Below, piece by piece: positions 4,352 through 43,247 of a DNA stretch of 64,000 nucleotides (its first letter is position 1; the number at the start of each line of letters is the position of its first letter). Source of the stretch: a virus; the IMG/VR virus record IMGVR_UViG_3300029959_000004, positions 1 to 64,000 of that record; one strand, written 5' to 3'. The notes beneath the pieces were generated by a model. That model was not told the origin of the DNA and did not search any database. It saw nothing but the letters and a program-made list of their open reading frames with translations. Position numbers and translations under genes: made by a program.

Positions 4352-4363
4352 AATATTTCTCCT

Positions 4364-10162: not shown

Positions 10163-10189
10163 ATTAGCTATATTTATACCCTCTATATA

Positions 10190-10219
10190 TATTTATATAT
10201 AAAAAACGCTGTTTGTCAA
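10190..10219 (-). promoter_or_regulatory. Phage promoter TTGACA-N16-TATAAATA upstream of polB
   Basis: Same motif and spacing at 22634, 27744 and 55499. Confidence 0.7.
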
Positions 10220-10260
10220 GAGTTATTTTAACTATTTTCTATAATATACCAATTTTCATT

Positions 10261-28602: not shown

Positions 28603-28833
28603 TCATACATACTCCTTTCTATTAATCTTATTCATAAATTCAACTATACCATATGGTTTAATTCTCTTCTTTTCTAACAGAGTTATATCTTCAATGGGAT
28701 TCATATAAATTCCACGAATTCTATATTTAGGATCCCATATAATTCTTAAATAAGCGCCATCTTCTTCTACTGAAACAACTCTTCCTTCATACCCAAAATT
28801 TCTATGTAGTACTCTATCTCCAACTCTAAACAT
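28603..28833 (-). CDS. Small head/tail-motif cassette protein
   Basis: MFRVGDRV...IKPYGIVEFM. Confidence 0.75.
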   Translation of the reverse strand: MFRVGDRVLHRNFGYEGRVVSVEEDGAYLRIIWDPKYRIRGIYMNPIEDITLLEKKRIKPYGIVEFMNKINRKEYV

Positions 28834-28844
28834 ATAATAATCCT

Positions 28845-29735
28845 TTATTTTATAAATCTTCTATATATAGATTCTACGTATTTATTTTTTAGAGCATATT
28901 TTTTTAAATACAACTCATCTGTTTCTCCGTGCAATTTAGCTAAAATACCTATATTCTTAGTCTTTCTCATAATCATATGAGCATTAGCGTCTCTTAAAGA
29001 TTCAAAAGTAATTGCTTTGTCTTTATATTTATATCTAGATAAAATCTTGTTATATCTTCCTATTATAGAATTGGTAATATTAAAAGCGTTTTTAACTTCT
29101 GGTTCCTTATTAAAATAGAACGTTATCATATCTTTTACTTCTTTGTTATAGAAACACTCTCTTTCCCCAATCTTTACAGAACATCTTTCTAAATCAAAAT
29201 CAACTCTTTTAATTTTTTCTATTTCATATCTGCGTATACCAGTAAAATACACAAAATGTATTATAGTTTTGAATTTAAGTGCATCGTAATGATTAGCCCA
29301 AAAATTAGCTCTATCTGTTATAGAACATAACATTTTGTGTGTAAGATATTCGTCTTTCTTTGTTAAGACCGGGACTTCTTTTTTATGTAAGTTTATAACT
29401 GTAACAATAGCTTTTAAATATCCTTTACTAATAAGATTCTTTTTATTTAAATACTTATAAAAGATTATTAAAGAAGACAGTCCCGTATTAAATTTCATAT
29501 ATTTGGAGAAGTTTTCTATCAATTTAGTTGTTGCAAACTCTTTTATTAGATTAATATTGTTTTCAAATATTCTACTTAGAGTAATATCATCTTTATATTC
29601 ATATTCTCTGTACATATAATCTTTATATTTTTCCTCTATATATTTACAGAATAGATTTATCGTTCTACTATAAGAACGATTTCTTATAGCTTTTATAGAA
29701 TTATTTTTTATAGAGTTTAATTCAGTTACTAACAT
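28845..29735 (-). CDS. Tyrosine recombinase/integrase-like protein with atypical catalytic motifs
   Basis: FTGIRRYEI; ESLR in place of HxLR; LHG in place of LGH; C-terminal Tyr (KKYA). Confidence 0.7.
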   Translation of the reverse strand: MLVTELNSIKNNSIKAIRNRSYSRTINLFCKYIEEKYKDYMYREYEYKDDITLSRIFENNINLIKEFATTKLIENFSKYMKFNTGLSSLIIFYKYLNKKNLISKGYLKAIVTVINLHKKEVPVLTKKDEYLTHKMLCSITDRANFWANHYDALKFKTIIHFVYFTGIRRYEIEKIKRVDFDLERCSVKIGERECFYNKEVKDMITFYFNKEPEVKNAFNITNSIIGRYNKILSRYKYKDKAITFESLRDANAHMIMRKTKNIGILAKLHGETDELYLKKYALKNKYVESIYRRFIK

Positions 29736-29780
29736 ATTTTTAATGCTCCAATATGTATAAAGCTAACTTAACAATATTTT

Positions 29781-30044
29781 TCATTCTATTTTTCTTTCAT
29801 AATATTTCTTACACCACTTAGCTATTTCAAATACTCTCGGTTCTTTTGAAATCTTTTTAATCTCACTAAACCAGAATCCTCCATCATAATCTTCTCCTTC
29901 AATATCTAAATGAACATAATCTCTAGAAGTGTACGTCTCTGTACATACACGGGTTACTGTACCTATCATTCCTTTTTTAATTCTCCCAGTTTTTCTATTT
30001 TTAAATAAGTCAATAATTTTAACTTTATCTCCTATTTTAAACAT
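29781..30044 (-). CDS. Small head/tail-motif cassette protein
   Basis: MFKIGDKV...RVFEIAKWCKKYY. Confidence 0.75.
   Translation of the reverse strand: MFKIGDKVKIIDLFKNRKTGRIKKGMIGTVTRVCTETYTSRDYVHLDIEGEDYDGGFWFSEIKKISKEPRVFEIAKWCKKYYERKIE
29798..29837. repeat. 40-bp exact direct repeat (other copy 30819-30858) encoding the cassette tail
   Basis: cataatatttcttacaccacttagctatttcaaatactct occurs at both sites. Confidence 0.9.
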
Positions 30045-30052
30045 TACTCTCC

Positions 30053-30319
30053 TTAGTAATAGTTTTTACAAAAATTCACAATACCGTAAGGTTTAATAAT
30101 CTTTCTTTCTACTAATTCAAAAGCATCTTGACCTCTCCAATCACTAACGATATGATGCCAATCATCTGAACATTTTATAATTATTCCATCATTAGTATCA
30201 ATATATCTTCCTCCAACACGTATAACTATTGCTTCTTTATTAATGTCTTTCGGATGAGTATTATATCCCGAACAAATCTGTCTAACTCTATCGCCAACAC
30301 TAAATTTTCTTTTTATCAT
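30053..30319 (-). CDS. Small head/tail-motif cassette protein
   Basis: KFSVGDRV...IIKPYGIVNFCKNYY. Confidence 0.7.
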   Translation of the reverse strand: MIKRKFSVGDRVRQICSGYNTHPKDINKEAIVIRVGGRYIDTNDGIIIKCSDDWHHIVSDWRGQDAFELVERKIIKPYGIVNFCKNYY

Positions 30320-30443
30320 ATTTTTTCTATCCAACAAGCTTGATTAATTATGTTCTTGAAATCTTCTTCAGTATAGTATCTCTTTTTAATTATTTCGTCG
30401 AGAATAGCTTTTGCTTGTCTAGTTGCATCTTCACTAATTTCTT

Positions 30444-30821
30444 TCATTTCTTGTTCACGAGTTTTTTCACTATATTGTTTAGATTTTGGTTTATTACCCC
30501 AAATACTTCCGCCGGTTTTAAATATATCTTGTTCCATTTATTCTCCTTTTTAGAAGTTTCTCTCATAAATCTAACTATACCATATTCTCTTATTATTTTC
30601 TTTTTTAATTTTAAGAAATCTTTATGACAAAGAATTTCTTTCCCCCCATTTCTTATGAAACACTCTGAAAATTTATATGAACTAAATTTTTCACTGTTAA
30701 TTAATTTAATCCAATAACAATTTTGAAATTTTGAAGATTGAGTAATATACACCTCTCTATTAAAATATTTAAAGTTTTCTTCTTTAAATTTGATTATATA
30801 TATGTCTCTTTTTTTAAACAT
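30444..30821 (-). CDS. Small head/tail-motif cassette protein (tail reads through into the next gene region)
   Basis: MFKKRDI...IIREYGIVRFMRETSKKE. Confidence 0.65.
   Translation of the reverse strand: MFKKRDIYIIKFKEENFKYFNREVYITQSSKFQNCYWIKLINSEKFSSYKFSECFIRNGGKEILCHKDFLKLKKKIIREYGIVRFMRETSKKENKWNKIYLKPAEVFGVINQNLNNIVKKLVNKK
30564..30603. repeat. 40-bp exact direct repeat (other copy 38691-38730; near copies at ~33355 and ~43000)
   Basis: cataaatctaactataccatattctcttattattttcttt. Confidence 0.9.
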
Positions 30822-31041
30822 AATATTTCTTACACCACTTAGCTATTTCAAATACTCTTGATTCTCTATTTTGTGGTATAATTTCCCAATCACTTTCAGA
30901 CAAACCATTCAAATTAAATGACACAGAAGTATAATCTCCCCAGTCTATTTTGAATCTATCTTTCGAGACCTTTATTAAGATACCAAATCGTTCTTTATTT
31001 TCTCTTAGTCTTATTTTATCTCCAGGCTTAGCTCTTAACAT
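30814..31041 (-). CDS. Small head/tail-motif cassette protein
   Basis: MLRAKPGDKI...RVFEIAKWCKKYYV. Confidence 0.7.
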   Translation of the reverse strand: MLRAKPGDKIRLRENKERFGILIKVSKDRFKIDWGDYTSVSFNLNGLSESDWEIIPQNRESRVFEIAKWCKKYYV

Positions 31042-31282
31042 TTTTATTCTCCAAAAAATCAACTAACTTAAATCTCTTAATATTCTTCTTTTTATATCTT
31101 TCTACGAGAGAAGTAGATTTTAAAGTTTCGCAATCGTTAGTATAATTTTCTAATATAGAAACAAAACTTCTTATATCAGAATTAGTAATACCAAAAAAAT
31201 CATTATCTAAATTGTCGTTTATAGATGTAGTTCCTACATATGATCTAGGATTATAACTACAACTTGTTCCAATATTAGGCAT
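31028..31282 (-). CDS. Small protein with divergent cassette tail
   Basis: ...NIKRFKLVDFLENKN. Confidence 0.55.
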   Translation of the reverse strand: MPNIGTSCSYNPRSYVGTTSINDNLDNDFFGITNSDIRSFVSILENYTNDCETLKSTSLVERYKKKNIKRFKLVDFLENKNVKS

Positions 31283-32249
31283 TGTTTAGTCTCTCAATTA
31301 AGTTCATTCCTTTTTCAGTCAATCTTCTGCCTTTAGAAGTTCTCACTATTATATCGGTTTGCAACAAATAAGGTTCTATATAATAGAGATAGTTTTCTAC
31401 CGAAGTATCTAAATAATTGGATAAGCTATTTAACCCAACAACATTTTTACTAGATTTGATATACTCTAATATTTTTAAGTCAGATGCAGTATAACCATCT
31501 TTAATAATAGAGAAGTTTTTTAAGACTCGTTCTATATTTCCATCTAGATATACTAAAGATTCTAACAGTCTAATTAAATTTCTAGGAGTTCCTCTGCAAT
31601 TTTCAGCTAAAAGCTTATAACATTTATTGTTAATGTTTTCTTTGTTAAATAATCTATTTTTATAGAGACAAACCATTCTAACTAAATCTTCAAGAGTATA
31701 TTTTTCTAATTCTATTATTATTTTGAATCTATCAAAGAAGGGTTTTCTATCTTTTATTATTTCCCCCAATTCAGTAGTGGCGCCAACTAACGTAAAGACG
31801 CTTTCACAACCTCTAAAATCTTCTAATATTGGATATAGTTTCTCCGCCATCTCTCTTTTAAGAGAATGTATTTCATCTAAGAAAATAATTCCTCCGTTAA
31901 CTTTTTCTATTCTATCAATTATATCTTCATAACTTTCTATATCACTTCCTATACAATAGACATATTTTACTTTTAAATACAAAGCTATAAGCAAAGCCAA
32001 AGATGTTTTACCAAAACCAGGAGAACCTGAAATTAGAGTATGAGGAAAGATAACATCTCTCTTCTGAGTTCCTTCTATATATCCTTTAATTATATTTTTA
32101 GCTTTGTTTTGTCCTATATAGTCATCAAATGTTTCCGGTCTATATATAGACTTTGATGGCAGAATAATTCTAGTCTTGTCCTTTTGAGAAGTAGAAGAAG
32201 TGCAGACTCCTTCTACATAAGGATTTAACAACCAGTTTAGAAATGACAT
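31275..32249 (-). CDS. ruvB: Holliday junction branch-migration helicase RuvB
   Basis: RPETFDDYIGQ, GSPGFGKT, FLDEIH, GATT, RGTPR and IEPYLLQ...RTSKGR motifs. Confidence 0.9.
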   Translation of the reverse strand: MSFLNWLLNPYVEGVCTSSTSQKDKTRIILPSKSIYRPETFDDYIGQNKAKNIIKGYIEGTQKRDVIFPHTLISGSPGFGKTSLALLIALYLKVKYVYCIGSDIESYEDIIDRIEKVNGGIIFLDEIHSLKREMAEKLYPILEDFRGCESVFTLVGATTELGEIIKDRKPFFDRFKIIIELEKYTLEDLVRMVCLYKNRLFNKENINNKCYKLLAENCRGTPRNLIRLLESLVYLDGNIERVLKNFSIIKDGYTASDLKILEYIKSSKNVVGLNSLSNYLDTSVENYLYYIEPYLLQTDIIVRTSKGRRLTEKGMNLIERLNNA

Positions 32250-33320: not shown

Positions 33321-33349
33321 ATTATATCATATAAAAATATATTTGTCAA
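33321..33349 (-). promoter_or_regulatory. Consensus sigma70 promoter (TTGACA-N17-TATAAT with extended -10 TG)
   Basis: Minus strand reads TTGACA AATATATTTTTATATGA TATAAT. Confidence 0.75.
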
Positions 33350-33633
33350 GAAGTTTCTCTCATAAACTTAACTATTCCAAATTCTCTTACAATTCTTTTC
33401 TTTCTCTCAATCAATTCTATTTCATCAATCCAAAGACCTCTAGCAGATAAAAGAGATTTTTCAATATCTAAATGAACAAATTTTTCTATTCTTAGGGAAG
33501 AATATCTGTAAGCGTCTCCCACATATGTAACTTTTCCTATTTTCCCCGATAATAGTTTGCTATTACTAGAACAATAAGTATTATGTTGAGAAAATTTTAC
33601 TCTTACTATGTCTCCAATTTTAAATTTATACAT
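33346..33633 (-). CDS. Small head/tail-motif cassette protein
   Basis: MYKFKIGDIV...IVREFGIVKFMRETS. Confidence 0.75.
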   Translation of the reverse strand: MYKFKIGDIVRVKFSQHNTYCSSNSKLLSGKIGKVTYVGDAYRYSSLRIEKFVHLDIEKSLLSARGLWIDEIELIERKKRIVREFGIVKFMRETS

Positions 33634-33762
33634 TTTCTAGTTTTATATAAACTCTTTTTAATAATTCTTTAAAAAGTTCTCTTCCAATAGAATCTTTTCT
33701 TAATTTTGTTTCTGTCTCTTTCCATACGTCTAACACTGCTTTTGCGTTGTCTTTAGACATTC

Positions 33763-34005
33763 TTACTCCTTCTTAGTTGTATTTTTCATAAAAGCAACTA
33801 TTGGATATTCTTTTATTATCTTCTTATAAGGAGATACTAATATCCAATTATATTCACAAGTACATCCTTCATCTTTATCTTGTCCTATCTTGTATGTTTT
33901 TAATATATTTTTATCATATTTAATAAGAGTATATATAATATCGGGACACGCTCCGCTACAGAAATTTTTTACTCTTACTTTATCTCCCGCTTTAAATTTA
34001 TACAT
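33763..34005 (-). CDS. Small head/tail-motif cassette protein
   Basis: MYKFKAGDKV...IIKEYPIVAFMKNTTKKE. Confidence 0.75.
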   Translation of the reverse strand: MYKFKAGDKVRVKNFCSGACPDIIYTLIKYDKNILKTYKIGQDKDEGCTCEYNWILVSPYKKIIKEYPIVAFMKNTTKKE

Positions 34006-34261
34006 AGTATTTTTTACAAAATTTAACTATTTCATAAGGTTGTGTTATCTTTTTATGTTCTTTTATCAACACACATTCATCTACGTACATAAATGTCAAC
34101 ATATATTCGTTAGTAGGATTTTTATATATTGTTTTTGCTCTTTTTATACTATCTGCCCAAAATCCCCATATTTTATTCCTATCTATTTTAACTATAATAC
34201 AGTAAGATTTAGAAGGATATTTATAAGTAATCAAATCACCAATCTTAAATTCACAATTCAT
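33998..34261 (-). CDS. Small head/tail-motif cassette protein
   Basis: EFKIGDLI...ITQPYEIVKFCKKYYV. Confidence 0.75.
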   Translation of the reverse strand: MNCEFKIGDLITYKYPSKSYCIIVKIDRNKIWGFWADSIKRAKTIYKNPTNEYMLTFMYVDECVLIKEHKKITQPYEIVKFCKKYYV

Positions 34262-35001
34262 TAACGACTTCTCCTTCTAGAAGAATAAGCTATATTGTTT
34301 CTAGTTTGAATTCTATTTTCTTCGTATTTAAAATATTCAGCGTATTTCTTTAGTTTTCTATCTTCCAACCCAGGTGCACAGTTAATTTCTAATACGTAAA
34401 GTTTATTGTCTTTACGAATAATATCAACTGCTCCAAAATTTAAATTTAATGTTTTAACTGCTCTCTTAGCTAAATCTATTAAAGAGTGTTTATATTCTCT
34501 ATCATAAGATACCTGAATCCAGCCATTTCTTTTACTTCTTACTACTTTGTTAGCCGTCTCTACTTTAGGTATTTTTACACTAACTATTGTATCATAATCT
34601 CCGAGAATATGTACTCTATATTCACTTGTTTTATCTATATATTGAATTAGATAATCATAATCTCTATTTAATCTATTTAATTCCTCTTGATTTCTAACGA
34701 AAATCACATCTCTTCCTTGAGAATGAAATCTTTTTCTTGCCAATAAAGGGAACATATCATTTGGTATTCTTTCTCCTCTAAGAAAGGTTTTGGGAGTAGA
34801 GATTTCATTGTTTTGCATTATTTTAGACGCTTTATACTTATCAAATTCACAGTTTGCGTTTAAATTCGCTCCAGTAAATTTTCCTCCGTAATTAACTATA
34901 AACTCTCTAAAAGAAGGAATATTAATTTTACTTGTTCTACAATTTAATTCTATCGCTAATTTTTTAGCGGTTATTCCCCCTTTTCTTCTAAAAATAAACA
35001 T
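34261..35001 (-). CDS. ATP-grasp ligase (RimK-like, phiEco32-type cluster)
   Basis: HSQGRD, IQYI..EYRVH, FGAVDI and YVLEINCAPG motifs. Confidence 0.88.
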   Translation of the reverse strand: MFIFRRKGGITAKKLAIELNCRTSKINIPSFREFIVNYGGKFTGANLNANCEFDKYKASKIMQNNEISTPKTFLRGERIPNDMFPLLARKRFHSQGRDVIFVRNQEELNRLNRDYDYLIQYIDKTSEYRVHILGDYDTIVSVKIPKVETANKVVRSKRNGWIQVSYDREYKHSLIDLAKRAVKTLNLNFGAVDIIRKDNKLYVLEINCAPGLEDRKLKKYAEYFKYEENRIQTRNNIAYSSRRRSR

Positions 35002-35058
35002 ACATTCTCTCCTTTTTAATAATATTTCTTACAGAATTCTACTATACCAAATGGTTTA
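34995..35058. repeat. 64-bp exact direct repeat (other copy 38302-38365): cassette tail, RBS and start of the next gene
   Basis: taaacatacattctctcctttttaataatatttcttacagaattctactataccaaatggttta occurs at both sites. Confidence 0.92.
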
Positions 35059-35306
35059 ATTATTCTATTTACTAATTTAATTGTACTAAAAGGCATATAT
35101 CCATAAAAAGTTCTAAATTTTTTTTCATTATTATGTTTAAACATATATAAAGCTTCTTTTATTGTGTTTCCCCAATAACCGTACGCTTTGTTTTCTTCAA
35201 TTTCTTTAATTACACAGTATCCTTGCGTACAGTATCCTTGAAAAATATCATCATAAAGAGAAGTTCTTATCTTATAAAAGACAAAGTCACCAATCTTAAA
35301 TTTCAT
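35016..35306 (-). CDS. Small head/tail-motif cassette protein
   Basis: MKFKIGDFV...IIKPFGIVEFCKKYY. Confidence 0.75.
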   Translation of the reverse strand: MKFKIGDFVFYKIRTSLYDDIFQGYCTQGYCVIKEIEENKAYGYWGNTIKEALYMFKHNNEKKFRTFYGYMPFSTIKLVNRIIKPFGIVEFCKKYY

Positions 35307-35629
35307 TTATAGTATCTTCTACAAAATTTTACAATACCATATTCTTTGATTGTTTTCTTTATTTCTCTATTAACAATTACAAAACTACCATACCAAGCAC
35401 TAAAATCTCTAAAATCATCGCTTACAGAAGCAAGTAAAGGATTATTTAATCCATCTTCACCGCACATATGATGTCTTGCGGTAGTTTTTAATATTTTATG
35501 TACTTTATATAACTGATTGATTGTTCCATAGTTATCTGTATCATGATAATTAGGAGAAATCCAAGATTTTCTACTAACATATCTAACAATGTCTCCTATT
35601 TTTAAATCTTTTGGATGTACAAATCTCAT
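35303..35629 (-). CDS. Small head/tail-motif cassette protein
   Basis: LKIGDIV...TIKEYGIVKFCRRYYK. Confidence 0.75.
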   Translation of the reverse strand: MRFVHPKDLKIGDIVRYVSRKSWISPNYHDTDNYGTINQLYKVHKILKTTARHHMCGEDGLNNPLLASVSDDFRDFSAWYGSFVIVNREIKKTIKEYGIVKFCRRYYK

Positions 35630-35630
35630 A

Positions 35631-36635
35631 TTATTTTTGTGGTAGAGAACCGCTTTCCATATAAGCTTTGTTGCAATCTTTACATATCATTGTTCCTCCC
35701 TCTAGAGAAATTTCTATCATTTCTTTAGTTGGAAAGAACTCTCCACAACTTTCACAACACTGTTCAGATTCTATATCTTCTTCGTTATTTTCTACTAATT
35801 TAATTTCTCCCTTTTTCACAGCTTTTCTACATTTTTTACATAAGTTGAAAGAAATAAAATCTCCTTTTGTTTCAGTTTCAATATCTACCGTCATTACATA
35901 TTTCATCTCATTACATCCTTCACATAAACCTTCAAAAACTACAGATTTGCCTTTGTTATCTACTTTATCTCTCACGGAGCTGTTTGTATTATCATTATAG
36001 TTTTCTTCTCTTTCATAATTATGAAAACCCAACAAACCGGCTCCTCTTTCAAAATAAGAACAAGATTTATAACCACTGTTTGAATAAAATATATTACTTT
36101 CTGTTTCCCAAGCACCAAACTTCTGAATTTCTCCATTGTTGTGCATAATAGCTAACTTATCTCCTTCAATAAATACGTTAATTAGTTTAATTACCGCTTC
36201 ACTGTGAAGATTATTTTTTATTGATTCGTCAGATAAAATATCTAATATAAACTTTTGTGTATCTGAGAATTTTTCGTGATGACCGTAGTTAGTAATTACT
36301 CCATTGTGAGCTACTGCAACTTGACAGATTAACTCCGGTTTTCTTAACAGTTCAGTATTCTTAGTTATAGGAAACGGATGCCTATTTCCTATATCTTTTA
36401 GACCGTGAGTAGCGAATCTAAAATGAATTACTAAAGCGTCTTCTTTAGAGAGATTATCTTTACACCAAGCGATCATATGTTTTGCATTAGTAAAGTCCTT
36501 CTTAATACAAACTTCATTAGAATTTACTTTCCAGTACATAATACCTATTCCGTCACTATTTCTAGTTTCTGCGTATAATAAATAAGCTTCTTTAGGAAAA
36601 TCTACTCCCTTCTCTTTAACAGCAATTAAGCACAT
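35631..36635 (-). CDS. Class II (Ntn) glutamine amidotransferase with C-terminal Zn ribbons
   Basis: N-terminal MC, NSDGIG, IHFRFATHG, HPF, AHNG and SDT motifs. Confidence 0.9.
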   Translation of the reverse strand: MCLIAVKEKGVDFPKEAYLLYAETRNSDGIGIMYWKVNSNEVCIKKDFTNAKHMIAWCKDNLSKEDALVIHFRFATHGLKDIGNRHPFPITKNTELLRKPELICQVAVAHNGVITNYGHHEKFSDTQKFILDILSDESIKNNLHSEAVIKLINVFIEGDKLAIMHNNGEIQKFGAWETESNIFYSNSGYKSCSYFERGAGLLGFHNYEREENYNDNTNSSVRDKVDNKGKSVVFEGLCEGCNEMKYVMTVDIETETKGDFISFNLCKKCRKAVKKGEIKLVENNEEDIESEQCCESCGEFFPTKEMIEISLEGGTMICKDCNKAYMESGSLPQK

Positions 36636-38308
36636 AATTTTTCTCCTTTCAGATGTTTTAACATTGTTCCATATTTTTCCTGGTCTTTAGCCCAATCTAT
36701 AAACAACTTCCAACTATTTTTTCTATATTCTCTTTCTCCTATTACTAGAGACGTAACTCCAACAACTTTTACAAAATAACTTAGAGCTTCCATAAATTGT
36801 AATATAGCAGTTATTCTTTTTGGATTTAATGTTCCTCTAAACATTCTTATTTCTACAGTATTAGTAGAACTATTCAAATTTAAAGCCCAATATCGACCAC
36901 TTTGAGAGCTATCGTTTAATATATCCTTTGTGTTAATTGTCTCAAATTTACAATAGTTTTCCCCAACTCCCTTTCTTCTAGACAATTCTTTAAGTTTATC
37001 TTCATTTTCTTTAAAGAATAATCTCATTTTGGTAATTTCTAAATCTTCAAAGAAATCTCTTGAGAGATGTATATGTAATCCACATTTACCACTCTCTTCT
37101 GAGGTAAATTCTTGTTCTTTCATCCATCTTAATATCTTGTTTAATTTCATTTCTCTGTGTGCATAAGATAGAGTAAACGGATGAGTAACTATCTCAAAAC
37201 CATTTGGAACGCTTCCATCGTGCTTGAGATAGTAATGTTTTTCTACTTTTTCTTTTTTAAGAAAAGAAATTAATTTTGAAGAAGCTTCTTTTTCTGAAGA
37301 ATCTCTTTGTACCTCTAATTCTAATCCCATAAATAAAGAGGCTTTCTGATCTTCTGAATTTTCCTTCTCCCATTTTAATTTTTTAAATTCTGGAGAGGGT
37401 TTATATGAATAATCGTGAATCAATCTTTCTTCTGCGGTAGAACCCTCTTCAGAATAACAATCTTCACAAAAAAGAAATCCATCACTTTCTCTAGTTCTCA
37501 TATCATCAACACGAAAAGTATCTCCACAGGCGTTGCATACAGAAAATCTTTCACTAAAACAATCACTACAATAAACGTTATCATCCGTTCCCGTGAATAT
37601 TTCACCTGAATGACAATCTAATTCACAATCACAAGAATAACAAGTAGCGAAATTTTCAGAGTAACAATCATCGCAATAACGATCTCCTTCTTCCGAAGTA
37701 AGCAAATCATCAATATAAAAATTTCCCTCACAACACGAACAAGAACCAACTTGTTGATTATAACATTCTTCACACCAAATTTTACCATCAAACTCGTGAG
37801 AACATTCTTCTTTCTCAATATTTTTTTTACACGATGAACATTTTACAATTTCCTTTGTTTTGAGTTTTCTCATGTTTTTCTCCTTTTCAAAAATTATATG
37901 AGCTTCTGTATTGTCTAAATTTATTAACCAAGAATATCTCCACTTGCCCGGTCTTTCTTTAATTCCAGTACCACCGTTAAGAGTATTGTTCCATAAACAG
38001 ATATATTTATTTTCATTTCTAGTAAAAATTTCTCCCACTTTTCCATAAATATATTTTTTATTCGCAATAGTTTCTGTGTCGTTCGCATTAGTTGCAATTA
38101 AATCACCAACGTTTATTTTATTAGAAATCTCATTTATATAGTATTTATTTACCTTCTCAATACCGCACTCATATAATTCTATTTCTAAATCATTTTTAAG
38201 AATACTTGTCAAGTACTTTGTTTCTCCTTCTGTTACTTCAGTTTTTGACAGTATTTTTATCAAAGTACTTTCGTTTTTTATTCTTGCTATTTCTCCCAAT
38301 TTAAACAT
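36626..38308 (-). CDS. Putative amidoligase (COOH-NH2 ligase) with tandem CxxC repeats
   Basis: MGLELEV, KHDGS, GFEIVTHP, CGLHIH, RYWALN and VEIRMFRGTL motifs; many CxxC pairs. Confidence 0.88.
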   Translation of the reverse strand: MFKLGEIARIKNESTLIKILSKTEVTEGETKYLTSILKNDLEIELYECGIEKVNKYYINEISNKINVGDLIATNANDTETIANKKYIYGKVGEIFTRNENKYICLWNNTLNGGTGIKERPGKWRYSWLINLDNTEAHIIFEKEKNMRKLKTKEIVKCSSCKKNIEKEECSHEFDGKIWCEECYNQQVGSCSCCEGNFYIDDLLTSEEGDRYCDDCYSENFATCYSCDCELDCHSGEIFTGTDDNVYCSDCFSERFSVCNACGDTFRVDDMRTRESDGFLFCEDCYSEEGSTAEERLIHDYSYKPSPEFKKLKWEKENSEDQKASLFMGLELEVQRDSSEKEASSKLISFLKKEKVEKHYYLKHDGSVPNGFEIVTHPFTLSYAHREMKLNKILRWMKEQEFTSEESGKCGLHIHLSRDFFEDLEITKMRLFFKENEDKLKELSRRKGVGENYCKFETINTKDILNDSSQSGRYWALNLNSSTNTVEIRMFRGTLNPKRITAILQFMEALSYFVKVVGVTSLVIGEREYRKNSWKLFIDWAKDQEKYGTMLKHLKGEKLCA

Positions 38309-38322
38309 ACATTCTCTCCTTT

Positions 38323-38583
38323 TTAATAATATTTCTTACAGAATTCTACTATACCAAATGGTTTACTATATTTATTAATCATTTCTAAATCATCTATAGA
38401 AAAACCTGAACATCTCGTATTATCTCTGAAAAACCTTACCACTATAGAATTTTCTCTTTTATCCATATCTATGTCTTTATGAAGAGCTCCTAACATAAGT
38501 ACTTTTTCTCCCACGCAAGGTAAAGAACAGGGACGAGTACAAAACTTTCCTCTTGTTTTTATTCTAGCTTTGCTATTAATCAT
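38323..38583 (-). CDS. Small tail-motif cassette protein
   Basis: ...SKPFGIVEFCKKYY. Confidence 0.7.
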   Translation of the reverse strand: MINSKARIKTRGKFCTRPCSLPCVGEKVLMLGALHKDIDMDKRENSIVVRFFRDNTRCSGFSIDDLEMINKYSKPFGIVEFCKKYY

Positions 38584-38669
38584 TGTATTGTCTCCAAATT
38601 TAACGAAGAGACCATAATATTCGGATAAGGGAGATATAAGAACCGTAATATTAGAGGGTCTCTTCCTAG

Positions 38670-38927
38670 TTATTTCTTTTCAATAGAACGCATAAATCTA
38701 ACTATACCATATTCTCTTATTATTTTCTTTGTAGAAAGAATAAAAGAATCTTCATACCAACTCCAATTATTCTCCAAAACATTGTAAACTTTTTTTCCGG
38801 GAGCAGTTGGAAAGTTGAATATTTTAGATATGGTAAATGTTTTGCCTATAAATGCGTTCATAATTTTATTCCAATCAAATTTACCTTCTTTTATTATTTT
38901 TATCTTATCTCCAATTTTATATTTCAT
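38670..38927 (-). CDS. Small head/tail-motif cassette protein
   Basis: MKYKIGDKI...IIREYGIVRFMRS. Confidence 0.75.
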   Translation of the reverse strand: MKYKIGDKIKIIKEGKFDWNKIMNAFIGKTFTISKIFNFPTAPGKKVYNVLENNWSWYEDSFILSTKKIIREYGIVRFMRSIEKK

Positions 38928-39176
38928 TTATTTATAGTTCTTCTTGCACCATTTTGCAATATTATATTCTTTATTTTTTCGTGTATTTACAAGTTTAAAT
39001 CTCCAATCGAAATAATCTTCTATTTGAAGTCTGTCAGAAATAACTTGATAAAATAGAGTATTTCCGCTCATATAACTATTTAAAATAGTATATTCTTTAT
39101 TTATAGTTAACTCACCAATATTAAGCCCACGATTTGAAACACAAATAACCTTAGTGTTTATTTTAAATATTTGCAT
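38928..39176 (-). CDS. Small head/tail-motif cassette protein
   Basis: IFKINTKV...NKEYNIAKWCKKNYK. Confidence 0.7.
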   Translation of the reverse strand: MQIFKINTKVICVSNRGLNIGELTINKEYTILNSYMSGNTLFYQVISDRLQIEDYFDWRFKLVNTRKNKEYNIAKWCKKNYK

Positions 39177-39825
39177 ATTTTAAACTCTTCGCTTTAGAAA
39201 CAAATTTCAATACCCAAAATATATACATTTTCATAGTTTCATAATTTAAAGTTCCATTAAACAATCTAAATTCAAGAGTTTTATAGCTGGAGTTTCTAAT
39301 ACAATCAATATTAAGAGCGTAATATTTTCTATCTTCTCTCCAGAAATCATCTTTGCAATACTTTCTAAACTCTGAAATATTATTTATCGTTAAGTTTTTA
39401 AGATGTTCAGGTAAAGGATGACAATATGAACACAATCTATTCCGTTGTACTTTAAATTTTGTTATAATAGCTTTTTGATTAACTAAAAATCTTTTAATTA
39501 CATTCGTTATTTCTTCGTCTGAAAAGTTTGATATATTAACGTGAATATGTAACCCACAAGTACTATTAATATATCCTTCGTTTGTTTTTATCATTTCTAA
39601 TAATTTTTTGATTTCTAATAACGATTTTTTGTTGTAAAAAAGATAATTTTTATATGAAGGTTTATATTCAAGTCCGTTGTCTAGCGAACCATCTTCTGTT
39701 ATTTCCCATCCTTCTAAGTAATGTTCTCTATTCCAACGTTTATTATTTATTATATCATAAGTATCAATATCGTCAGGATATTCAACCTCTATTTCTGGAC
39801 TAAATCTAATCTGTGTTATTCTCAT
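39163..39825 (-). CDS. Second putative amidoligase
   Basis: PEIEVE, EDGSL, TCGLHIHV, KYYALN and TLEFRLFNGTL motifs. Confidence 0.88.
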   Translation of the reverse strand: MRITQIRFSPEIEVEYPDDIDTYDIINNKRWNREHYLEGWEITEDGSLDNGLEYKPSYKNYLFYNKKSLLEIKKLLEMIKTNEGYINSTCGLHIHVNISNFSDEEITNVIKRFLVNQKAIITKFKVQRNRLCSYCHPLPEHLKNLTINNISEFRKYCKDDFWREDRKYYALNIDCIRNSSYKTLEFRLFNGTLNYETMKMYIFWVLKFVSKAKSLKYANI

Positions 39826-39835
39826 TTCTCTCTCC

Positions 39836-40102
39836 TTATTTTTTATTTATATTATTCATAAAATTCACGATTCCATATGGTTTAATATTTCTTTTAACTA
39901 ATTCTAGATGATGTTCCCAAACACCGTACCTATTTTGTGAGTCCCAATAAATATATGGAGAACAGTTTCTTGTTATGTAAGCTATCTTAAATTTTTTGTT
40001 TAATACCCAACCCGCTCCTCCATAAGAACAGTCATCATCAGATCCTTTAGATGTTAATACACATTTTACTTTATCTCCAATCTTAAATTTGGGGTTATTC
40101 AT
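39836..40102 (-). CDS. Small head/tail-motif cassette protein
   Basis: KFKIGDKV...NIKPYGIVNFM. Confidence 0.75.
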   Translation of the reverse strand: MNNPKFKIGDKVKCVLTSKGSDDDCSYGGAGWVLNKKFKIAYITRNCSPYIYWDSQNRYGVWEHHLELVKRNIKPYGIVNFMNNINKK

Positions 40103-40349
40103 AAAATTTCTTACAGAAATTAACTATATTATATGGTTTAATTGTCTTCTTTTTTACTAATACAAAACTATCTTCATTAATCCAATCTTCAAAATCTGGA
40201 TTATCTAAATCTCTAGTTTTTACAGCATCAAAATTATTATATTTTCTTCGTCCTATCTCTGTTATTACAGTTTTTCTCCCTATATTTTCTAGAGAAACAC
40301 CTCTACCACTTCTTATAACTTTTACTATGTCTCCAACTTTAAATTTCAC
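40095..40349 (-). CDS. Small head/tail-motif cassette protein
   Basis: MKFKVGDIV...TIKPYNIVNFCKKFYE. Confidence 0.75.
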   Translation of the reverse strand: MKFKVGDIVKVIRSGRGVSLENIGRKTVITEIGRRKYNNFDAVKTRDLDNPDFEDWINEDSFVLVKKKTIKPYNIVNFCKKFYE

Positions 40350-40375
40350 TTAAACTTCTCCTAATCTTAATATAT

Positions 40376-40501
40376 AATCTGACTAAAAAGGTGACTAACT
40401 ACCAATTTTTAGTTCTTATCGTGCTTTATATCAACTGATGTTGATAAAGGCGAGCAGAACCTTTTTAGTTTCGTTAGATTTTCACTAACTCTTCAGAGAT
40501 T
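40376..40501 (-). ncRNA. Hammerhead ribozyme, type I, with large insertion in stem III; predicted cleavage after GUC (40381/40380)
   Basis: AAUCU-CUGAAGA-GUUAG(UGAAAAU)CUAAC-GAAA-CUAAAAAGGU...ACCUUUUUAG-UC-AGAUU: complete core and three stems. Confidence 0.88.
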
Positions 40502-41406
40502 TTACGCTTTTACCAAGCGTTCCGAAGTCCATTCAGAATCAATTAATGACATTTCATCATCTGTGATAGATTGAGTATCCTCTACAGGATGAAATCCATT
40601 AGTTACTTCTCCTATTGAAACATCAAGAAGAGCAACTAATTTTCCTGAACGAATTAGCTGATATTTTCTATCATCAGAATCTTTTAAGACGTCTCCCGCT
40701 TTGAAAGTAACAATCTCCGGTACTAACTCAAATCTTGAAGCTTTAAAAGACACCTCTCTTCCAGCTTCGTTAATAATAACGAAGTTGCCATTTTCCTTCT
40801 GACGAATTACGTCATAAGTCTTACCAATCGCTAAATCTCTTGTTCCAGTTACATAAATAACTTTAACTTTCATTTCTTCCTCCTCTTTTGTTACTGGTTA
40901 ATAATAAATCATCTTATAGATGATCTGTTTTTCTCATTTCCTTTAGAAGCTTAACTATACCTAACCTATTTTTAGCTTCCATTAACTGCATTAACTTTTC
41001 CGCAAGATAGTCTTCTTCTGTTTCATATTTCTCTAAGAATTCTATCTCCCTTTCATTCTCCTCTACTTGTTTCTTTAATACATTAACTAAATTCTTTAAG
41101 TATTTAGCTTTTTCCTTTCTAGAAGCTAGACAGAAATCGTCTTTTTTATATCCTTCATAATCATAGAATATATTAAAAGTTGTATTTTTGTCACTTTTTA
41201 CAGAATAATATCCAACGTAGACCGCAGTAATTATTAAAACTTGTCCTTCATAACCAACAGTACCACTGTTTCTTCCTTTTATTAAAAGAATCTTGTCACC
41301 AACACTAAATTTATCTAAATCATTATCCATTTTATCTCCTTTTCTTTACAGTTAATAATATATAACTTTTATTTAGTAGTGTCTCACTTTATTCCTCCTT
41401 TCAATA

Positions 41407-41742
41407 TTAAAACCAAAATATAGGTCTATATATCGCATTTGGTAAACATCTTTGCATATTCTTTGCACCTATTGGATTACAACTATGTATTATTATTTTA
41501 CAGGTTAGATTTTTATCTTCAAGATATTTAGCTACCTGATAACCCGTATTTTCATCGTTTGAGTTGACAAATATTCTATTTCCTAAATCGTGATCTAAAC
41601 ATATTAAATCCCAATTTAAATCTCTTTTTAGAATATTAATAGCGTCTTTAGCTGTTTTGACAAATGTTATATTATGCCCAACATATTTTCTAGAGAAAGA
41701 ATCGTGTCTTGTTTGCATATCGTCAAGAAATAGAATTTTCAT
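41407..41742 (-). CDS. Cyclic-phosphate-processing receiver-domain protein (RNA-repair associated)
   Basis: ILFLDD.R, ICLDHDLG, TGYQVA and IIHSCNPIGAKNM are the signature motifs of this receiver subfamily. Confidence 0.8.
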   Translation of the reverse strand: MKILFLDDMQTRHDSFSRKYVGHNITFVKTAKDAINILKRDLNWDLICLDHDLGNRIFVNSNDENTGYQVAKYLEDKNLTCKIIIHSCNPIGAKNMQRCLPNAIYRPIFWF

Positions 41743-41753
41743 TTAATTCTCCT

Positions 41754-41972
41754 TCATTTATCATACATTTTTTTACAAAATTTAGATATTTCAAACTCTT
41801 TAACTGTATTTTTTTCTTTTATAAGAGAAAATCTAAAAGACATATAACCATATTTTCTACCAAGATTGTTTATTATATAAACCATATCGTCGGATTTTGA
41901 CAAAACATAATAGATTTTATTTATAGTTAATTCAATCCCACGTCCTGAATTATCTTTACATTTAACTTTCAT
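41754..41972 (-). CDS. Small tail-motif cassette protein
   Basis: ...TVKEFEISKFCKKMY. Confidence 0.7.
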   Translation of the reverse strand: MKVKCKDNSGRGIELTINKIYYVLSKSDDMVYIINNLGRKYGYMSFRFSLIKEKNTVKEFEISKFCKKMYDK

Positions 41973-41978
41973 ATGTTT

Positions 41979-42242
41979 TTAAAGAGATTTAATTAAATCA
42001 CCTCTCATAAAAGCTACTATCGGATATTCTCTGATAACTTTATTTTTTTCTATCAACTTCCAATTATTCAGGCAAGAACAACCACAATCGTGAGTGACTT
42101 CTGTCATTCTTCTTTGATTACTTGCATATAATATTTTACTTTCTTTAACCAATAAGTATCTTAGAGTGTAAATCTGTCCTTCCTTCGCTCCTGAACAATC
42201 AGACAATATTCTTATTTTATCTCCCTCTTTAAACTCTCGCAT
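41979..42242 (-). CDS. Small head/tail-motif cassette protein
   Basis: EFKEGDKI...VIREYPIVAFMR. Confidence 0.75.
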   Translation of the reverse strand: MREFKEGDKIRILSDCSGAKEGQIYTLRYLLVKESKILYASNQRRMTEVTHDCGCSCLNNWKLIEKNKVIREYPIVAFMRGDLIKSL

Positions 42243-42495
42243 TTACATTCTCCAAGAATTTTACTATGGGAAACGGTTTAATAACTTTCTTTTTCTTTTC
42301 AATTAATTCTATCATAAATTCTTTAATTAAATCACCCGTTTTTTCTTCGTGATTATAACTTGAATCCCATATTATAATATATTCATAAACGGAAAAGTAT
42401 CTTACGATAGTTCCTGTCCATCCTGTTTGAGCATAAGGTAGCCAAAGATCGTATGATATTACTACCTTTACTCGGTCTCCTTTTTTAAATTTCAT
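42229..42495 (-). CDS. Small head/tail-motif cassette protein
   Basis: MKFKKGDRV...VIKPFPIVKFLEN. Confidence 0.75.
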   Translation of the reverse strand: MKFKKGDRVKVVISYDLWLPYAQTGWTGTIVRYFSVYEYIIIWDSSYNHEEKTGDLIKEFMIELIEKKKKVIKPFPIVKFLENVNARV

Positions 42496-42754
42496 AGTAT
42501 TCTCTATAATAACTCTTTACTAGATTAAAATTAAAACTATTTATAAATCCATCTAGCATATCGAACCAACAATTAAAAAATCGCTGTAGTTTAGTGGGAA
42601 TTATTTTATATATAATCCAATGTATAAATTCATGAATAAAAGTTTCTATATAATCTATTCCTTTCATATCTTCTCTTATATAGATAGTTTCTTCATCTAA
42701 ATAACCATAAACATTAATATTTTCTTTACTCTTTCTGAAGAGTTGTACACGCAT
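42485..42754 (-). CDS. Small HExxH metallopeptidase-like protein
   Basis: IYI...ETFIHEFIH. Confidence 0.5.
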   Translation of the reverse strand: MRVQLFRKSKENINVYGYLDEETIYIREDMKGIDYIETFIHEFIHWIIYKIIPTKLQRFFNCWFDMLDGFINSFNFNLVKSYYREYYEI

Positions 42755-43247
42755 TAGACTTCTCCATAATTATTTTATAAAGTTTTTCATTAGATTTATC
42801 TAACTCTTTAACTTTATCAGTTAATTCTTGTATTTTTTCAGTTAATATTTCTACCGAACGTCTTTGATTTACACCAACTTTATTTTGTCTTAATTCATAT
42901 ATTTCTATTTGTTTTAAACTATTTTCCATATCTAAATCTTTGCATCCACTTAATAAAAACAAAGATAATATTATAAAGGCGATTTTCTTAGTTGTTTCTC
43001 TCATAAATCTGACTATTTCATATTCTCTTATTATTTTCTTTTTCTCAACTAATTCTAAATCACTCTCTAAAAAACCGGAGCATCCTCCAGCTTTCTTCTC
43101 AAAATTAGATACATAAACATAACAATCATAGATTTTCGGATTACTGACTATTCCTATTAAACCAACAAATGGGCAAAAATCACCACATACAAAACAATCA
43201 TTTTTTTTAACAACCTTTACTTTATCTCCAGTCTTAAATTTGCTCAT
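42726..43247 (-). CDS. Cassette protein fused in frame to a lipoprotein-like module
   Basis: MSKFKTGDKV...IIREYEIVRFMRETTKK followed by IAFIILSLFLLSGC and a coiled coil. Confidence 0.65.
   Translation of the reverse strand: MSKFKTGDKVKVVKKNDCFVCGDFCPFVGLIGIVSNPKIYDCYVYVSNFEKKAGGCSGFLESDLELVEKKKIIREYEIVRFMRETTKKIAFIILSLFLLSGCKDLDMENSLKQIEIYELRQNKVGVNQRRSVEILTEKIQELTDKVKELDKSNEKLYKIIMEKSNACTTLQKE

Follow-up and report, generated by a model that had tools for sequence, protein, structure and literature searches.

A phage array of small SH3-like proteins with a common C-terminal tail

Why does a phage carry about twenty small neighbouring genes whose products end in the same short peptide? We addressed this question for an uncultured phage with a genome of 109,385 bp (~109 kb), of which positions 1 to 64,000 form the window analysed here (IMG/VR record IMGVR_UViG_3300029959_000004). 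A first-pass annotation had described the locus as cassettes with a constant head, a hypervariable core and a constant C-terminal tail.

The array and its members

All 20 of the ORFs in that description are present on the minus strand between 28603 and 43247. The shared tail is carried by 19 of them, while ORF 31028-31282 has it in degenerate form only. Outside the description, ORF 40914-41330 is a possible second degenerate copy. As had been proposed, we built a tail HMM, with which we searched the complete genome, cut into stop-to-stop segments in all six frames. It returned 19 matches at E <= 3e-7, all at 28.6-43.3 kb, and no tail copies outside the array (next best E 0.049). A second HMM, built from 78 family tails, retrieved the identical set of 19 from the genome. 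The FKxGDxV head, attributed earlier to most members, was found in 17 of the 19. The members are listed below; they were identified with the tail HMM unless another source is given.

28603..28833, minus: tail-family gene, 76 aa, tail IKPYGIVEFMN
29781..30044, minus: tail-family gene, 87 aa, variant tail PRVFEIAKWCKKYY; body 64% identical to P0064
30053..30316, minus: tail-family gene, about 87 aa, tail IKPYGIVNFCKNYY
30444..30821, minus: tail-family gene, 125 aa
30814..31041, minus: tail-family gene, 75 aa, tail SRVFEIAKWCKKYYV
31028..31282, minus: degenerate member, tail-like NIKRFKLVDFLENKNVKS, without SH3-like head (profile searches)
33346..33633, minus: tail-family gene, 95 aa, tail VREFGIVKFMRETS; body 56% identical to P0032
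33763..34005, minus: tail-family gene, 80 aa, tail IKEYPIVAFMKNTTKKE
33998..34261, minus: tail-family gene, 87 aa, tail TQPYEIVKFCKKYYV
35016..35306, minus: tail-family gene, 96 aa, tail IKPFGIVEFCKKYY
35303..35629, minus: tail-family gene, 108 aa, tail IKEYGIVKFCRRYYK; homologue is L006 7987-8331
38323..38583, minus: tail-family gene, 86 aa, tail SKPFGIVEFCKKYY
38670..38927, minus: tail-family gene, 85 aa, tail IREYGIVRFMRSIEKK; body 60% identical to P0124
38928..39176, minus: tail-family gene, 82 aa, tail NKEYNIAKWCKKNYK
39836..40102, minus: tail-family gene, 88 aa, tail IKPYGIVNFMNNINKK; body 54% identical to an L012 ORF
40095..40349, minus: tail-family gene, 84 aa, tail IKPYNIVNFCKKFYE (tail HMM and AF2)
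40914..41330, minus: possible divergent 21st member (body E 7e-6, family profile)
41754..41972, minus: tail-family gene, 72 aa, tail VKEFEISKFCKKMYDK
41979..42242, minus: tail-family gene, 87 aa, tail IREYPIVAFMRGDLIKSL
42229..42495, minus: tail-family gene, 88 aa, tail IKPFPIVKFLENVNARV
42726..43247, minus: tail-family gene, 173 aa (P0003), tail IREYEIVRFMRETTKK

Several members depart from the common layout. The reading frame of 30444..30821 continues for ~40 aa beyond the tail (FMRETSKKE...), overlapping ORF 30316-30537. For the degenerate 31028-31282, the tail HMM gave E 0.27 and the full family profile E 3e-4, the latter in the C-terminal half (positions 44-84) only. In ORF 40914-41330, a coiled coil is inserted into an SH3-like protein whose end (...RLGIVKLLKEMRK / ...RLGIVKLLKEMRKTDHL) resembles the tail. 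The array, with its 19 clear and two degenerate copies, takes up ~13% of the genome. Its genes belong to the replication and accessory arm and run in the same direction as the replication genes. The locus holds a genuine, so far unnamed family of small SH3-like proteins with a common C-terminal tail, and the array is a lineage-specific expansion of this single family.

Two members with different tail subtypes were modelled with AF2 (pLDDT 85.0 and 86.7). In both, the predicted body is a single five-stranded SH3/KOW-like barrel of ~65 aa, followed by a C-terminal helix formed by the tail (residues 86-94 in 33346..33633 and 74-82 in 40095..40349); this helix is short and amphipathic and corresponds to the second half of the motif. 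Searching with the barrel model, VIA-align ranked the Spt5 KOW domain (Z 9.2, rmsd 1.9, 60 aa) and PsaE (Z 9.2) closest. Tudor, chromo and Mind bomb domains came slightly below these two, and numerous Tudor and SH3 structures scored Z 7-8; the structural matches were restricted to residues 1-69. The small beta-barrel scaffold suggested earlier is thus backed by the AF2 and VIA-align results, which place the bodies, as predicted models, in the SH3-like small beta-barrel fold. The array proteins share five strands and an FKxGDxV-type first strand with KOW, PsaE, Tudor and MIB-HERC2 (SH3_15) barrels. Unlike SH3_15/KOW-type families, however, they stay below the Pfam gathering score (best 12.7 bits against a cut-off of 24; SH3_15 or KOW at E <= 0.01 in only one of 78 members), and their C-terminal motif is missing from those families. 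The family profile also matched multi-SH3_15 repeat proteins and HERC2 in PDB (E 1e-4).

The middles of the proteins had been called largely unalignable. In contrast, one profile matched every body (18 of them with E values between 1e-13 and 1e-23), BLASTP detected many body pairs among the members, and the two modelled members folded confidently. The term hypervariable core was likewise overstated, because 18 members allowed a valid comparison and the bodies of 13 of these have homologues in other metagenomes, at 33-64% identity. This retention implies specific retained functions, and the sequence comparison indicates that the members are old, differentiated paralog subfamilies rather than a rapidly diversifying library. 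A diversity-generated cassette library, in which close relatives would vary in the bodies but not in the flanks, does not match these conserved bodies.

Conservation of the tail

The tail of the 19 ORFs follows the pattern KK.[IV]K.[YF]GI[VA].[FW][CML], i.e. a basic linker KKx and a 10-residue motif [IV]-K-x-[YF]-G-I-[VA]-x-[FW]-[CML]. Its information content reaches 3.3-4.2 bits at six positions, whereas paralog bodies are merely 25-37% identical. Among 42 tails, codon choice at every conserved position ranges freely over the synonyms (Ile as ATA, ATT or ATC; Val, Gly and Leu with four codons each), and replacements are conservative (Y/F, I/V, K/R, C/M/L). The codon pattern indicates that the tail is selected as protein and not as DNA alone. 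Conservation only as DNA, a match to a characterised family and static array content had been named beforehand as outcomes that would overturn the first-pass reading, and none of the three was observed.

The tail DNA was also said to supply the translation signals of the next gene. This holds for about half of the junctions, while at the others a Shine-Dalgarno (SD) site lies downstream of the stop. AAGGAG occurs within KKE or KE at 33763 (where that of KKE is the SD of the next gene), 28603 and 30444, and GGAG within LE at 42229 and 31028. At 33998, 30814, 40095 and 35303, the endings YYV, FYE or YYK plus stop contain the following ATG; in 30814..31041 it falls within TATGTTTAA. The final codons of 28603..28833 contain both an SD and the ATGA with which the next gene begins, and the tail of 42229..42495 contains both GGAG and the following ATG. 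This overlap is ordinary translational coupling, which involves the last few codons only, outside the conserved IKxYGIVxF core.

If the peptide were a by-product of a recombination or coupling cassette, these shared signals would be expected, as would the 99-nt repeat of tail, RBS and start that occurs at the tail of the 35016 gene and at 38278-38376. The two copies stand before the ATP-grasp and amidoligase genes described below, and further tails are near-identical in DNA. Moreover, a second SH3-like array, on contig L016, has a common EEENE-plus-stop ending that consists of a purine run and AATGA containing the next start. The conserved core, however, lies 5' of the coupling signals, shows the free synonymous variation and conservative replacements noted above, and is retained in distant metagenome homologues. 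On these sequence grounds, the cassette reading is largely refuted for the core and seems extremely improbable. No conserved RNA element was found in the array region with Rfam.

The first-pass annotation had compared the tail with PIP boxes. A clamp loader (PHROG 168) and a 237-aa ORF of clamp size and position (26998-27711; no family match in profile searches including PHROG) lie just downstream of the array, and the motif is hydrophobic and C-terminal, as a sliding-clamp-binding peptide would be. The analogy finds no support in the sequence, however. The tail logo differs in spacing from Qxx[ILM]xx[FY][FY] or QL[SD]LF, and it lacks both the defining Gln and an in-register FF or LF pair. The DNA polymerase of the phage, by comparison, terminates in RQMQLF, of the canonical clamp-binding type and unlike the tail. 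A clamp-binding role is accordingly very hard to credit.

A membrane-targeting amphipathic helix, which would put the SH3 modules on the inner membrane face in the manner of the C-terminal MTS of MinD and FtsA, is improbable too. The tail is C-terminal, Lys-rich, short and predicted to be amphipathic, and in 42726..43247 the reading frame stays open past it, through a hydrophobic stretch containing a lipobox-like LSGC and a coiled coil. Known targeting helices, however, conserve amphipathicity and not sequence, whereas Ile, Gly, Phe and Tyr/Phe are nearly invariant in the tail, which points to a specific protein contact.

Related arrays and the interleaved enzymes

The tail motif ends at least 57 non-identical metagenome proteins and is present in 76 of 153 representatives (150 listed and three cluster members). 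All tailed representatives are <= 110 aa, except the 173-aa protein of the window, so the tail is confined to small single-domain proteins. A word search located it on no further type of domain. The portability typical of docking motifs is therefore seen only in the degenerate 31028 ORF, which counts against a docking role. None of the curated families in Pfam, NCBIfam, PHROG, PADLOC or PDB covers the tail, in line with the earlier impression of an undescribed motif. Tandem tail genes occur on nine independent metagenome contigs that differ in order and membership. Array content thus varies, in line with the first-pass reading, and members are gained, lost and reshuffled between related phages.

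Four enzyme genes, which occupy ~30% of the array, are interleaved with the small genes:

34261..35001, minus: RimK-like ATP-grasp ligase (PF02655 1e-11, PF08443 1.5e-9)
35631..36635, minus: class-II GATase-like (Ntn, Cys2) protein with C-terminal CxxC Zn-ribbons (PF13522)
36626..38308, minus: large amidoligase with N-terminal SH3-like head, 8 invariant CxxC pairs and C-terminal Amidoligase_2
39163..39825, minus: small amidoligase, Amidoligase_2 domain alone (PF12224, 9e-21)

The ATP-grasp has ~70 metagenome homologues, and its profile matched Ddl, RimK and CdnC in PDB equally weakly (E 6e-5 to 2e-4). The GATase-like protein scored 24 bits with PF13522 (GATase_6), under the cut-off of 27; its N-terminal Cys2 is present, and it is 45% identical to L006 5846-6907. 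PF12224 matched at 9e-21 and 8e-10. All three domains of the amidoligase, GATase and ATP-grasp module are therefore encoded together.

RiPP precursors such as prochlorosins, and graspetides made via ATP-grasp ligases, combine a constant recognition sequence with a variable core. The array resembles them in its many proteins with one shared peptide and a nearby ATP-grasp, and one of the remote PDB matches of the latter is the graspetide ligase CdnC (E 1.9e-4). Unlike a short core peptide, however, the variable part is a folded 65-aa domain conserved between phages. The part between head and tail was confidently folded by AF2, and family comparison found no conserved donor/acceptor pattern (Ser/Thr/Lys or Asp/Glu) there, so in this respect the small proteins do not fit graspetide-like precursors.

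A related idea is that the tail is a recognition element for the interleaved ligases. The small proteins might be substrates, modified by the ATP-grasp or amidoligase and restored by the GATase-like peptidase, or adaptors that deliver SH3-bound targets to the enzymes. On seven of the nine contigs, tail genes lie beside genes homologous to those for the ATP-grasp (54-58% identity), the large amidoligase (about 44%) or the GATase. Furthermore, an SH3-like head of the same type as in the array proteins is fused to the large amidoligase and its L022 relative, contig L014 has an SH3-like ORF directly upstream of the amidoligase, the L016 array is interleaved with the same three enzyme types, and the tail-lineage GATase and amidoligase have CxxC ribbon modules in common.

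With enzymes making up so much of the array, however, synteny alone would bring the two together on short contigs. Moreover, RimK, TTL and Pup-type substrates are ligated at conserved free C-terminal residues (an acidic end, GGQ or GGE). In the array family, 2-15 residues of variable sequence follow the tail core, the final position is occupied by K in 33 of 78 members and by various residues in the others, and two members have long extensions (40 to 90 aa). The tail consequently does not resemble a RimK/TTL-type substrate end or Pup-like tag; a free C-terminus is not needed, which fits an internal docking motif. The module also occurs without any tail gene on contigs L014-L023 and in LUZ24-like and other phages (PMC3890496, which lists it for the LUZ24-like phages; PMC10580990, which cites Iyer et al. 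2009). Being far commoner without the tail family, it does not depend on that family. As in the known phage module, amidoligase (PF12224), class-II GATase and ATP-grasp are all found in the array and related contigs; in contrast to that module, described without a multigene family, the array's enzymes sit among ~20 SH3-like genes, and its amidoligase and GATase bear additional CxxC ribbons. Taken together, we consider ligase recognition unlikely.

A possible docking helix

We tentatively favour the reading, which still falls short of an even chance, that the array products are small SH3-fold binders with one common docking helix. The barrels would have differentiated as binding modules, with a separate target for every subfamily, and the tail would be a short linear element linking them all to one common partner. 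As candidate partner we would put a host hub protein first, the phage ligases of the locus (ATP-grasp, Zn-ribbon amidoligase, GATase) second and self-association third.

The tail may instead be a structural part of the fold, with the helix packing in cis on a constant beta1/beta5 face, in an ordinary paralog expansion without a shared partner. The AF2 models fit such packing equally well and in this respect speak against the docking helix, as linker and helix have pLDDT 78-89 in both (pTM 0.68-0.71). The head (beta1) and the LELV strand (beta5), which are conserved as well, adjoin in an SH3 barrel, and several uncharacterised phage proteins in BFVD align across ~80 columns, C-terminus included. 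The tail is, however, far more conserved than the barrel that would carry it, as a docking helix would be, and the matched solved folds stop at residue 69. Tail-less homologous barrels are known as well: the multi-SH3_15 repeat proteins, ORFs 48799-49173 and 40502-40873 of the same genome, and small SH3-like ORFs in contigs L014 and L016. The barrel can thus do without the tail, which looks like an added functional element. We regard cis-packing as the less likely reading, albeit one to be taken seriously.

Variable binding domains with a constant docking box are known from poxvirus ankyrin/PRANC and eukaryotic F-box and SOCS-box proteins. The array likewise combines many paralogs, differentiated binding domains and a short conserved C-terminal element; unlike those families, to which its proteins have no homology, it belongs to prokaryotic hosts, and a ligase interaction is hypothetical. 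T-even internal-protein loci, with their common N-terminal capsid-targeting sequence cleaved by the prohead protease, are similar in small genes, unrelated or divergent bodies, one short constant peptide and cassette exchange, but the constant element of the array is C-terminal and its genes lie among replication and accessory genes.

In a bolder version, which we rate as distinctly unlikely, the tail would be a docking box that plugs ~20 SH3 recognition modules into the phage's own peptide ligases, with the Zn-ribbon amidoligase and ATP-grasp modifying and the GATase-like thiol peptidase acting as eraser. If true, the L016 EEENE array around the same enzymes would be an independent case of this logic, and the docking box would be a phage analogue of the F-box/PRANC substrate-adaptor families that would direct the covalent modification of many host proteins.

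Genome setting and membership of the tail family

The IMG/VR record, whose first 64 kb form the window, measures 109,385 bp, has direct terminal repeats and a G+C content of ~29%, and was rated 80% complete by CheckV. Up to ~55 kb nearly all genes lie on the minus strand, and this mostly minus-strand set includes a primase/helicase, a ribonucleotide reductase, a clamp loader, a sigma-70-region-4 protein and a RuvB-like ATPase. No close relative of the phage was found among GenBank phages; the region at 28-44 kb gave no DNA match to them, a tail protein gave no match by tblastn, and for its DNA polymerase the identity to T4-like cyanophage polymerases is only ~24%. A protein collection places exactly these ATP-grasp and amidoligase sequences on three contigs, the longest of 419,765 bp versus 109 kb for the IMG/VR record. 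The true genome or context may be larger, or the 419,765-bp assembly may be chimeric.

Features in and around the array
8036-10162, minus strand: family-B DNA polymerase; C-terminus ...TRQMQLF at the stop codon, resembling a bacterial-type clamp-binding motif
26998-27711: 237-aa ORF, sized and placed like a sliding clamp; no family match
31028-31282, minus strand: degenerate tail family member; tail KKKNIKRFKLVDFLEN, similar to the tail of 42229; body not SH3-like
34261-35001, minus strand: ATP-grasp
35631-36635, minus strand: GATase-like protein
36626-38308, minus strand: large amidoligase
39163-39825, minus strand: small amidoligase
40914-41330: possible 21st member, absent from the first-pass list; SH3-like body, coiled-coil insert, end ...RLGIVKLLKEMRK
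41407-41742, minus strand: cREC, a cyclic-phosphate-processing receiver domain (PF20274, 9.5e-20), within the array region
44722-46968, minus strand: RtcB RNA ligase with intein, just upstream of the array region

The first-pass annotation had listed 20 small ORFs with a common C-terminal tail. All 20 are present, and 19 carry the tail at E <= 3e-7, the exception being the degenerate ORF 31028-31282. A tail profile run against all six-frame stop-to-stop segments of the whole genome gave 19 matches at this level, all within 28.6-43.3 kb on the coding strand and using all three frames, and no other copy below 0.049. In 78 family tails the motif reads K-K-x-[IV]-K-x-[YF]-G-I-[VA]-K-[FW]-[CML], with 3.3-4.2 bits of information at K, Y/F, G, I, V and F, and is followed by 2-15 unconserved residues.

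For no member did Pfam, NCBIfam, PHROG, PADLOC or PDB return a sequence match covering the tail, so that no characterised family was found to include it; PADLOC matched neither the tail proteins nor the ligases. When 1.84 billion cluster representatives were searched by profile, 966 matched at E <= 1e-3; we inspected 153 sequences (150 listed representatives and three cluster members). The motif does occur beyond the window: it was present in 76 of the 153 inspected sequences, all of <= 110 aa except a 173-aa protein that belongs to the window itself. Among the 153, no long repeat protein carried it, and a word search, which is a weak probe, found no tail on proteins of > 154 aa. The few named members are annotated at source as 'hypothetical protein'. 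IMG/VR scans with two tail-family alignments and the small amidoligase gave no relatives, the family was not found in GTDB genomes, and the ESM Atlas returned only unnamed viral clusters, below 0.9. These results delimit a real multigene family that has so far not been described; its C-terminal motif is strongly conserved, and the family recurs in a lineage of uncultured phages.

Several local features of the array were recorded separately. In 42726-43247 (minus strand) the frame continues past the tail (..FMRETTKK) into IAFIILSLFLLSGC, which is signal-peptide-like with a lipobox-like LSGC, and then into a coiled coil. Translation from the Met of FMRETT, as an internal start, would yield a lipoprotein-like product, so the tail and lipoprotein genes appear fused or nested. 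Tail gene 30444-30821 (minus strand) lacks the usual stop after RETS(KKE) and its frame extends by ~40 aa; it overlaps ORF 30316-30537 by 94 nt, and the AAGGAG-ATG of the latter sits inside the tail. An 89-aa ORF within the array (42485-42754, minus strand) has an HExxH motif (FIHEFIHW) and no Pfam match. The end of the sigma-like protein (...VLKKYYEK) was rejected as a relative of the tail, since it has only KKYY in common and forms the end of the region-4 match, which covers residues 200-233 of 237. At the stop codon of tail gene 33346-33633, and overlapping it, is a sigma-70 promoter with a perfect consensus sequence (33321-33349, minus strand; TTGACA, 17 nt, TATAAT, extended -10 TG). No other site in 27-45 kb matches at 12/12, and promoter-like sites as a whole were not enriched relative to shuffles. 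Searched with Rfam, 27-49 kb contained no RNA family that reached its gathering score, and for 40-49 kb there was likewise no match at E <= 0.5.

Conservation of the tail and fold of the bodies

The tail is conserved at the protein level. In the 19 window tails, pS was 0.58 and pN 0.34, and third codon positions vary at the invariant residues. Across 42 tails from the window and nine metagenome contigs, several codons stand behind every conserved residue (ATA, ATT and ATC for Ile; four each for Val, Gly and the Leu at the C/M/L position; two each for Phe, Tyr and Cys), and replacements are conservative (Y/F, I/V, K/R, C/M/L). Conservation as DNA only does not describe these tails, and a purely DNA-level cassette is a minor alternative. 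The proposal that tail DNA supplies the translation signals of the next gene applies to about half of the junctions; elsewhere the Shine-Dalgarno sequence follows the stop. Where the signals overlap the tail, they comprise either the Shine-Dalgarno sequence (AAGGAG in KKE/KE or GGAG in LE) or the next ATG (in TATGTATAA or ATGA), and are confined to the last few codons. Such overlap is a normal form of translational coupling. At the DNA level some tails are nearly identical, and a 99-nt direct repeat (34971-35069 and 38278-38376; 85% identity, central ~60 nt identical) spans the tail of the upstream gene, the ribosome-binding site and the opening codons of the ATP-grasp and large amidoligase genes, respectively. 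Tails thus also serve as sites of recombination or gene conversion.

AlphaFold2 was run on two members of different tail subtypes, with family alignments of 77-78 sequences. Both were predicted alike, as a five-stranded barrel, a linker and a C-terminal helix that corresponds to the tail (40095 protein: helix at residues 74-82, model pLDDT 85.0; 33346 protein: helix at residues 86-94, model pLDDT 86.7). Structural alignment to 48,161 PDB representatives matched residues 1-69 to Spt5 KOW and PsaE (Z 9.2) and to Tudor, chromo, NusG-KOW and Mind bomb domains (Z 7-9), in agreement with the small beta-barrel scaffold proposed earlier. None of the matched folds among these representatives contained the tail, and Foldseek against PDB gave nothing at E <= 0.001. 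The family profile matched long SH3_15-repeat proteins via the head only.

According to the models, the constant head is strand 1 of the SH3-like barrel, and the supposedly unalignable middle forms the remainder of the barrel plus loops, some with Cys-rich insertions. Without the tail, other metagenomes supply a homologue, 33-64% identical, for 13 of the 18 validly compared bodies (30053 was left out because its listed match is its own protein with an alternative start). Several body homologues are recognisable in related contigs; for example, 35303 resembles 7987-8331 of contig L006. The first-pass annotation was largely right in its description, except that the bodies form old, individually conserved paralog subfamilies instead of a hypervariable library.

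The tail is conserved far above the domain to which it is attached, tail-less homologous barrels exist, C-terminal extensions are tolerated, and the tail is found solely at the end of single-domain proteins. Our tentative reading of these features is that the tail is a short docking element constrained from outside, through which many differentiated binders of the SH3 fold could possibly be joined to one common partner. As a type, the family is a variation on what is already known, namely expansions of small SH3-like paralogs in phages and families that pair a variable domain with a constant box. As the main alternative, the modelled tail helix may pack on its own barrel, which we consider rather unlikely; linker confidence in the AlphaFold2 models does not discriminate between packing and docking. 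Membrane targeting and clamp binding by the tail are minor alternatives. The C-terminus of the phage's own polymerase, RQMQLF, is of the canonical clamp-binding type and unlike the tail, which argues against clamp binding and against the PIP-box likeness suggested before.

Related arrays and the peptide-ligase module

Nine JGI metagenome contigs (L005-L013) carry the tail family, at least eight of them with two or more tandem tail genes on one strand; in L013 the contig end falls inside a tail gene, and a head-bearing ORF adjoins. Contig L006 (8.9 kb) holds, in this order, a tail gene with five small ORFs after it, then a large amidoligase and a GATase, and lastly six more tail-type genes with one unrelated ORF among them; its tail-type genes 7668-7985 and 7987-8331 were recognised by the motif, not by the tail HMM. 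The L006 amidoligase is 44% identical to 36626-38308 and has the same CxxC ribbons, and the GATases are 45% identical. In L005, L007 and L008 an ATP-grasp homologue (54-58% identical) is directly followed by tail genes, and in L010, L011 and L012 tail genes follow the end of a GATase gene. L011 terminates in a RuvB-like gene. The ATP-grasp lies upstream of the 35303-type gene in L007 and downstream in the window, and L006 has three additional members between the GATase and the 35303-type gene. Since order and membership vary between the window and related contigs, the array is dynamic and its content is not static.

A second recurrent small family (..RFRGRG.R....LP..FAER.AIY..) occurs among the tail genes of related contigs and is fused to a tail protein in L012:
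L006, 7151-7387
L010, 1054-1338
L007, 3-227
L012, 581-1129 (N-terminal half)

A module of Amidoligase_2, class-II GATase and ATP-grasp is recorded in LUZ24-like and other phages (PMC3890496), and PMC10580990, citing Iyer et al. 2009, suggests a role in cell-wall or protein modification. The array sits within this peptide-ligase module, which is known but unexplained. Contigs with close ATP-grasp or amidoligase homologues reach 110 kb; those encoding P0193/P0249, P0196/P0246, P0166/P0252 and P0157/P0226 measure 110, 49, 38 and 31 kb, respectively. Ten MAG contigs, phage-like and distant (L014-L023; 25-40% identity), came from scanning with the ATP-grasp alignment; in these, tblastn with the window enzymes detected an amidoligase in five and a GATase in two. 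The tail is absent from all ten loci, and the module is therefore independent of the tail family.

One of the ten, L016 (JBOFGJ010000684.1, 1-18375; phage-like, binned with a Flavobacterium sp. MAG), holds another array, independent of the first. There, [ED]EENE or a near variant forms the ending of at least 14 small ORFs, of which nine match the SH3-like body of the family profile, and the array is interleaved with a GATase (4246-5325), an amidoligase (7898-8704) and an ATP-grasp (9596-10360). The DNA of the ending (GAR GAR GAR AAT GAR TRR) is a purine run plus AATGA holding the ATG of the next gene; because of this coincidence, it may be a DNA-level coupling cassette, not a peptide signal. 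An SH3-like head of the same type starts the large amidoligase in the window and in L022, and in L014 an SH3-like ORF lies directly upstream of the amidoligase. Together with the L016 array, these arrangements connect SH3-like domains with the module.

In the large amidoligase, 16 Cys are invariant in 30 homologues; they form eight CxxC pairs, LIM-like by Pfam, between the SH3-like N-terminus and the catalytic domain. The C-terminus of the GATase has CxxC ribbons similar to those of the neighbouring large amidoligase. The tail might serve for recognition by the ligases, with tail proteins as substrates or adaptors, a reading made attractive by conserved synteny and the SH3-amidoligase fusion. 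We regard this as improbable, because the enzymes are distributed much more widely than the tail and the C-terminus of the proteins is unconserved. Complex prediction for the large amidoligase, the ATP-grasp and the tail protein P0006, with their own alignments, gave an ipSAE of 0.00 in two runs without controls, a value that speaks neither for nor against binding.

Implications

Small unnamed genes abound in the early and accessory regions of phages, and here one family occupies about one eighth of the genome. It merits an HMM profile, so that its members are no longer annotated as unrelated hypothetical proteins. Because the motif is short and conserved far above the fold, the idea of a common partner, central to the docking reading, is directly testable with a single peptide. 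If that partner were a host hub, the family would be a natural set of SH3-scaffold binders against ~15-20 host targets. If it were the amidoligase/ATP-grasp module, the tail proteins would be the first substrates or adaptors for a widespread, unexplained phage module.
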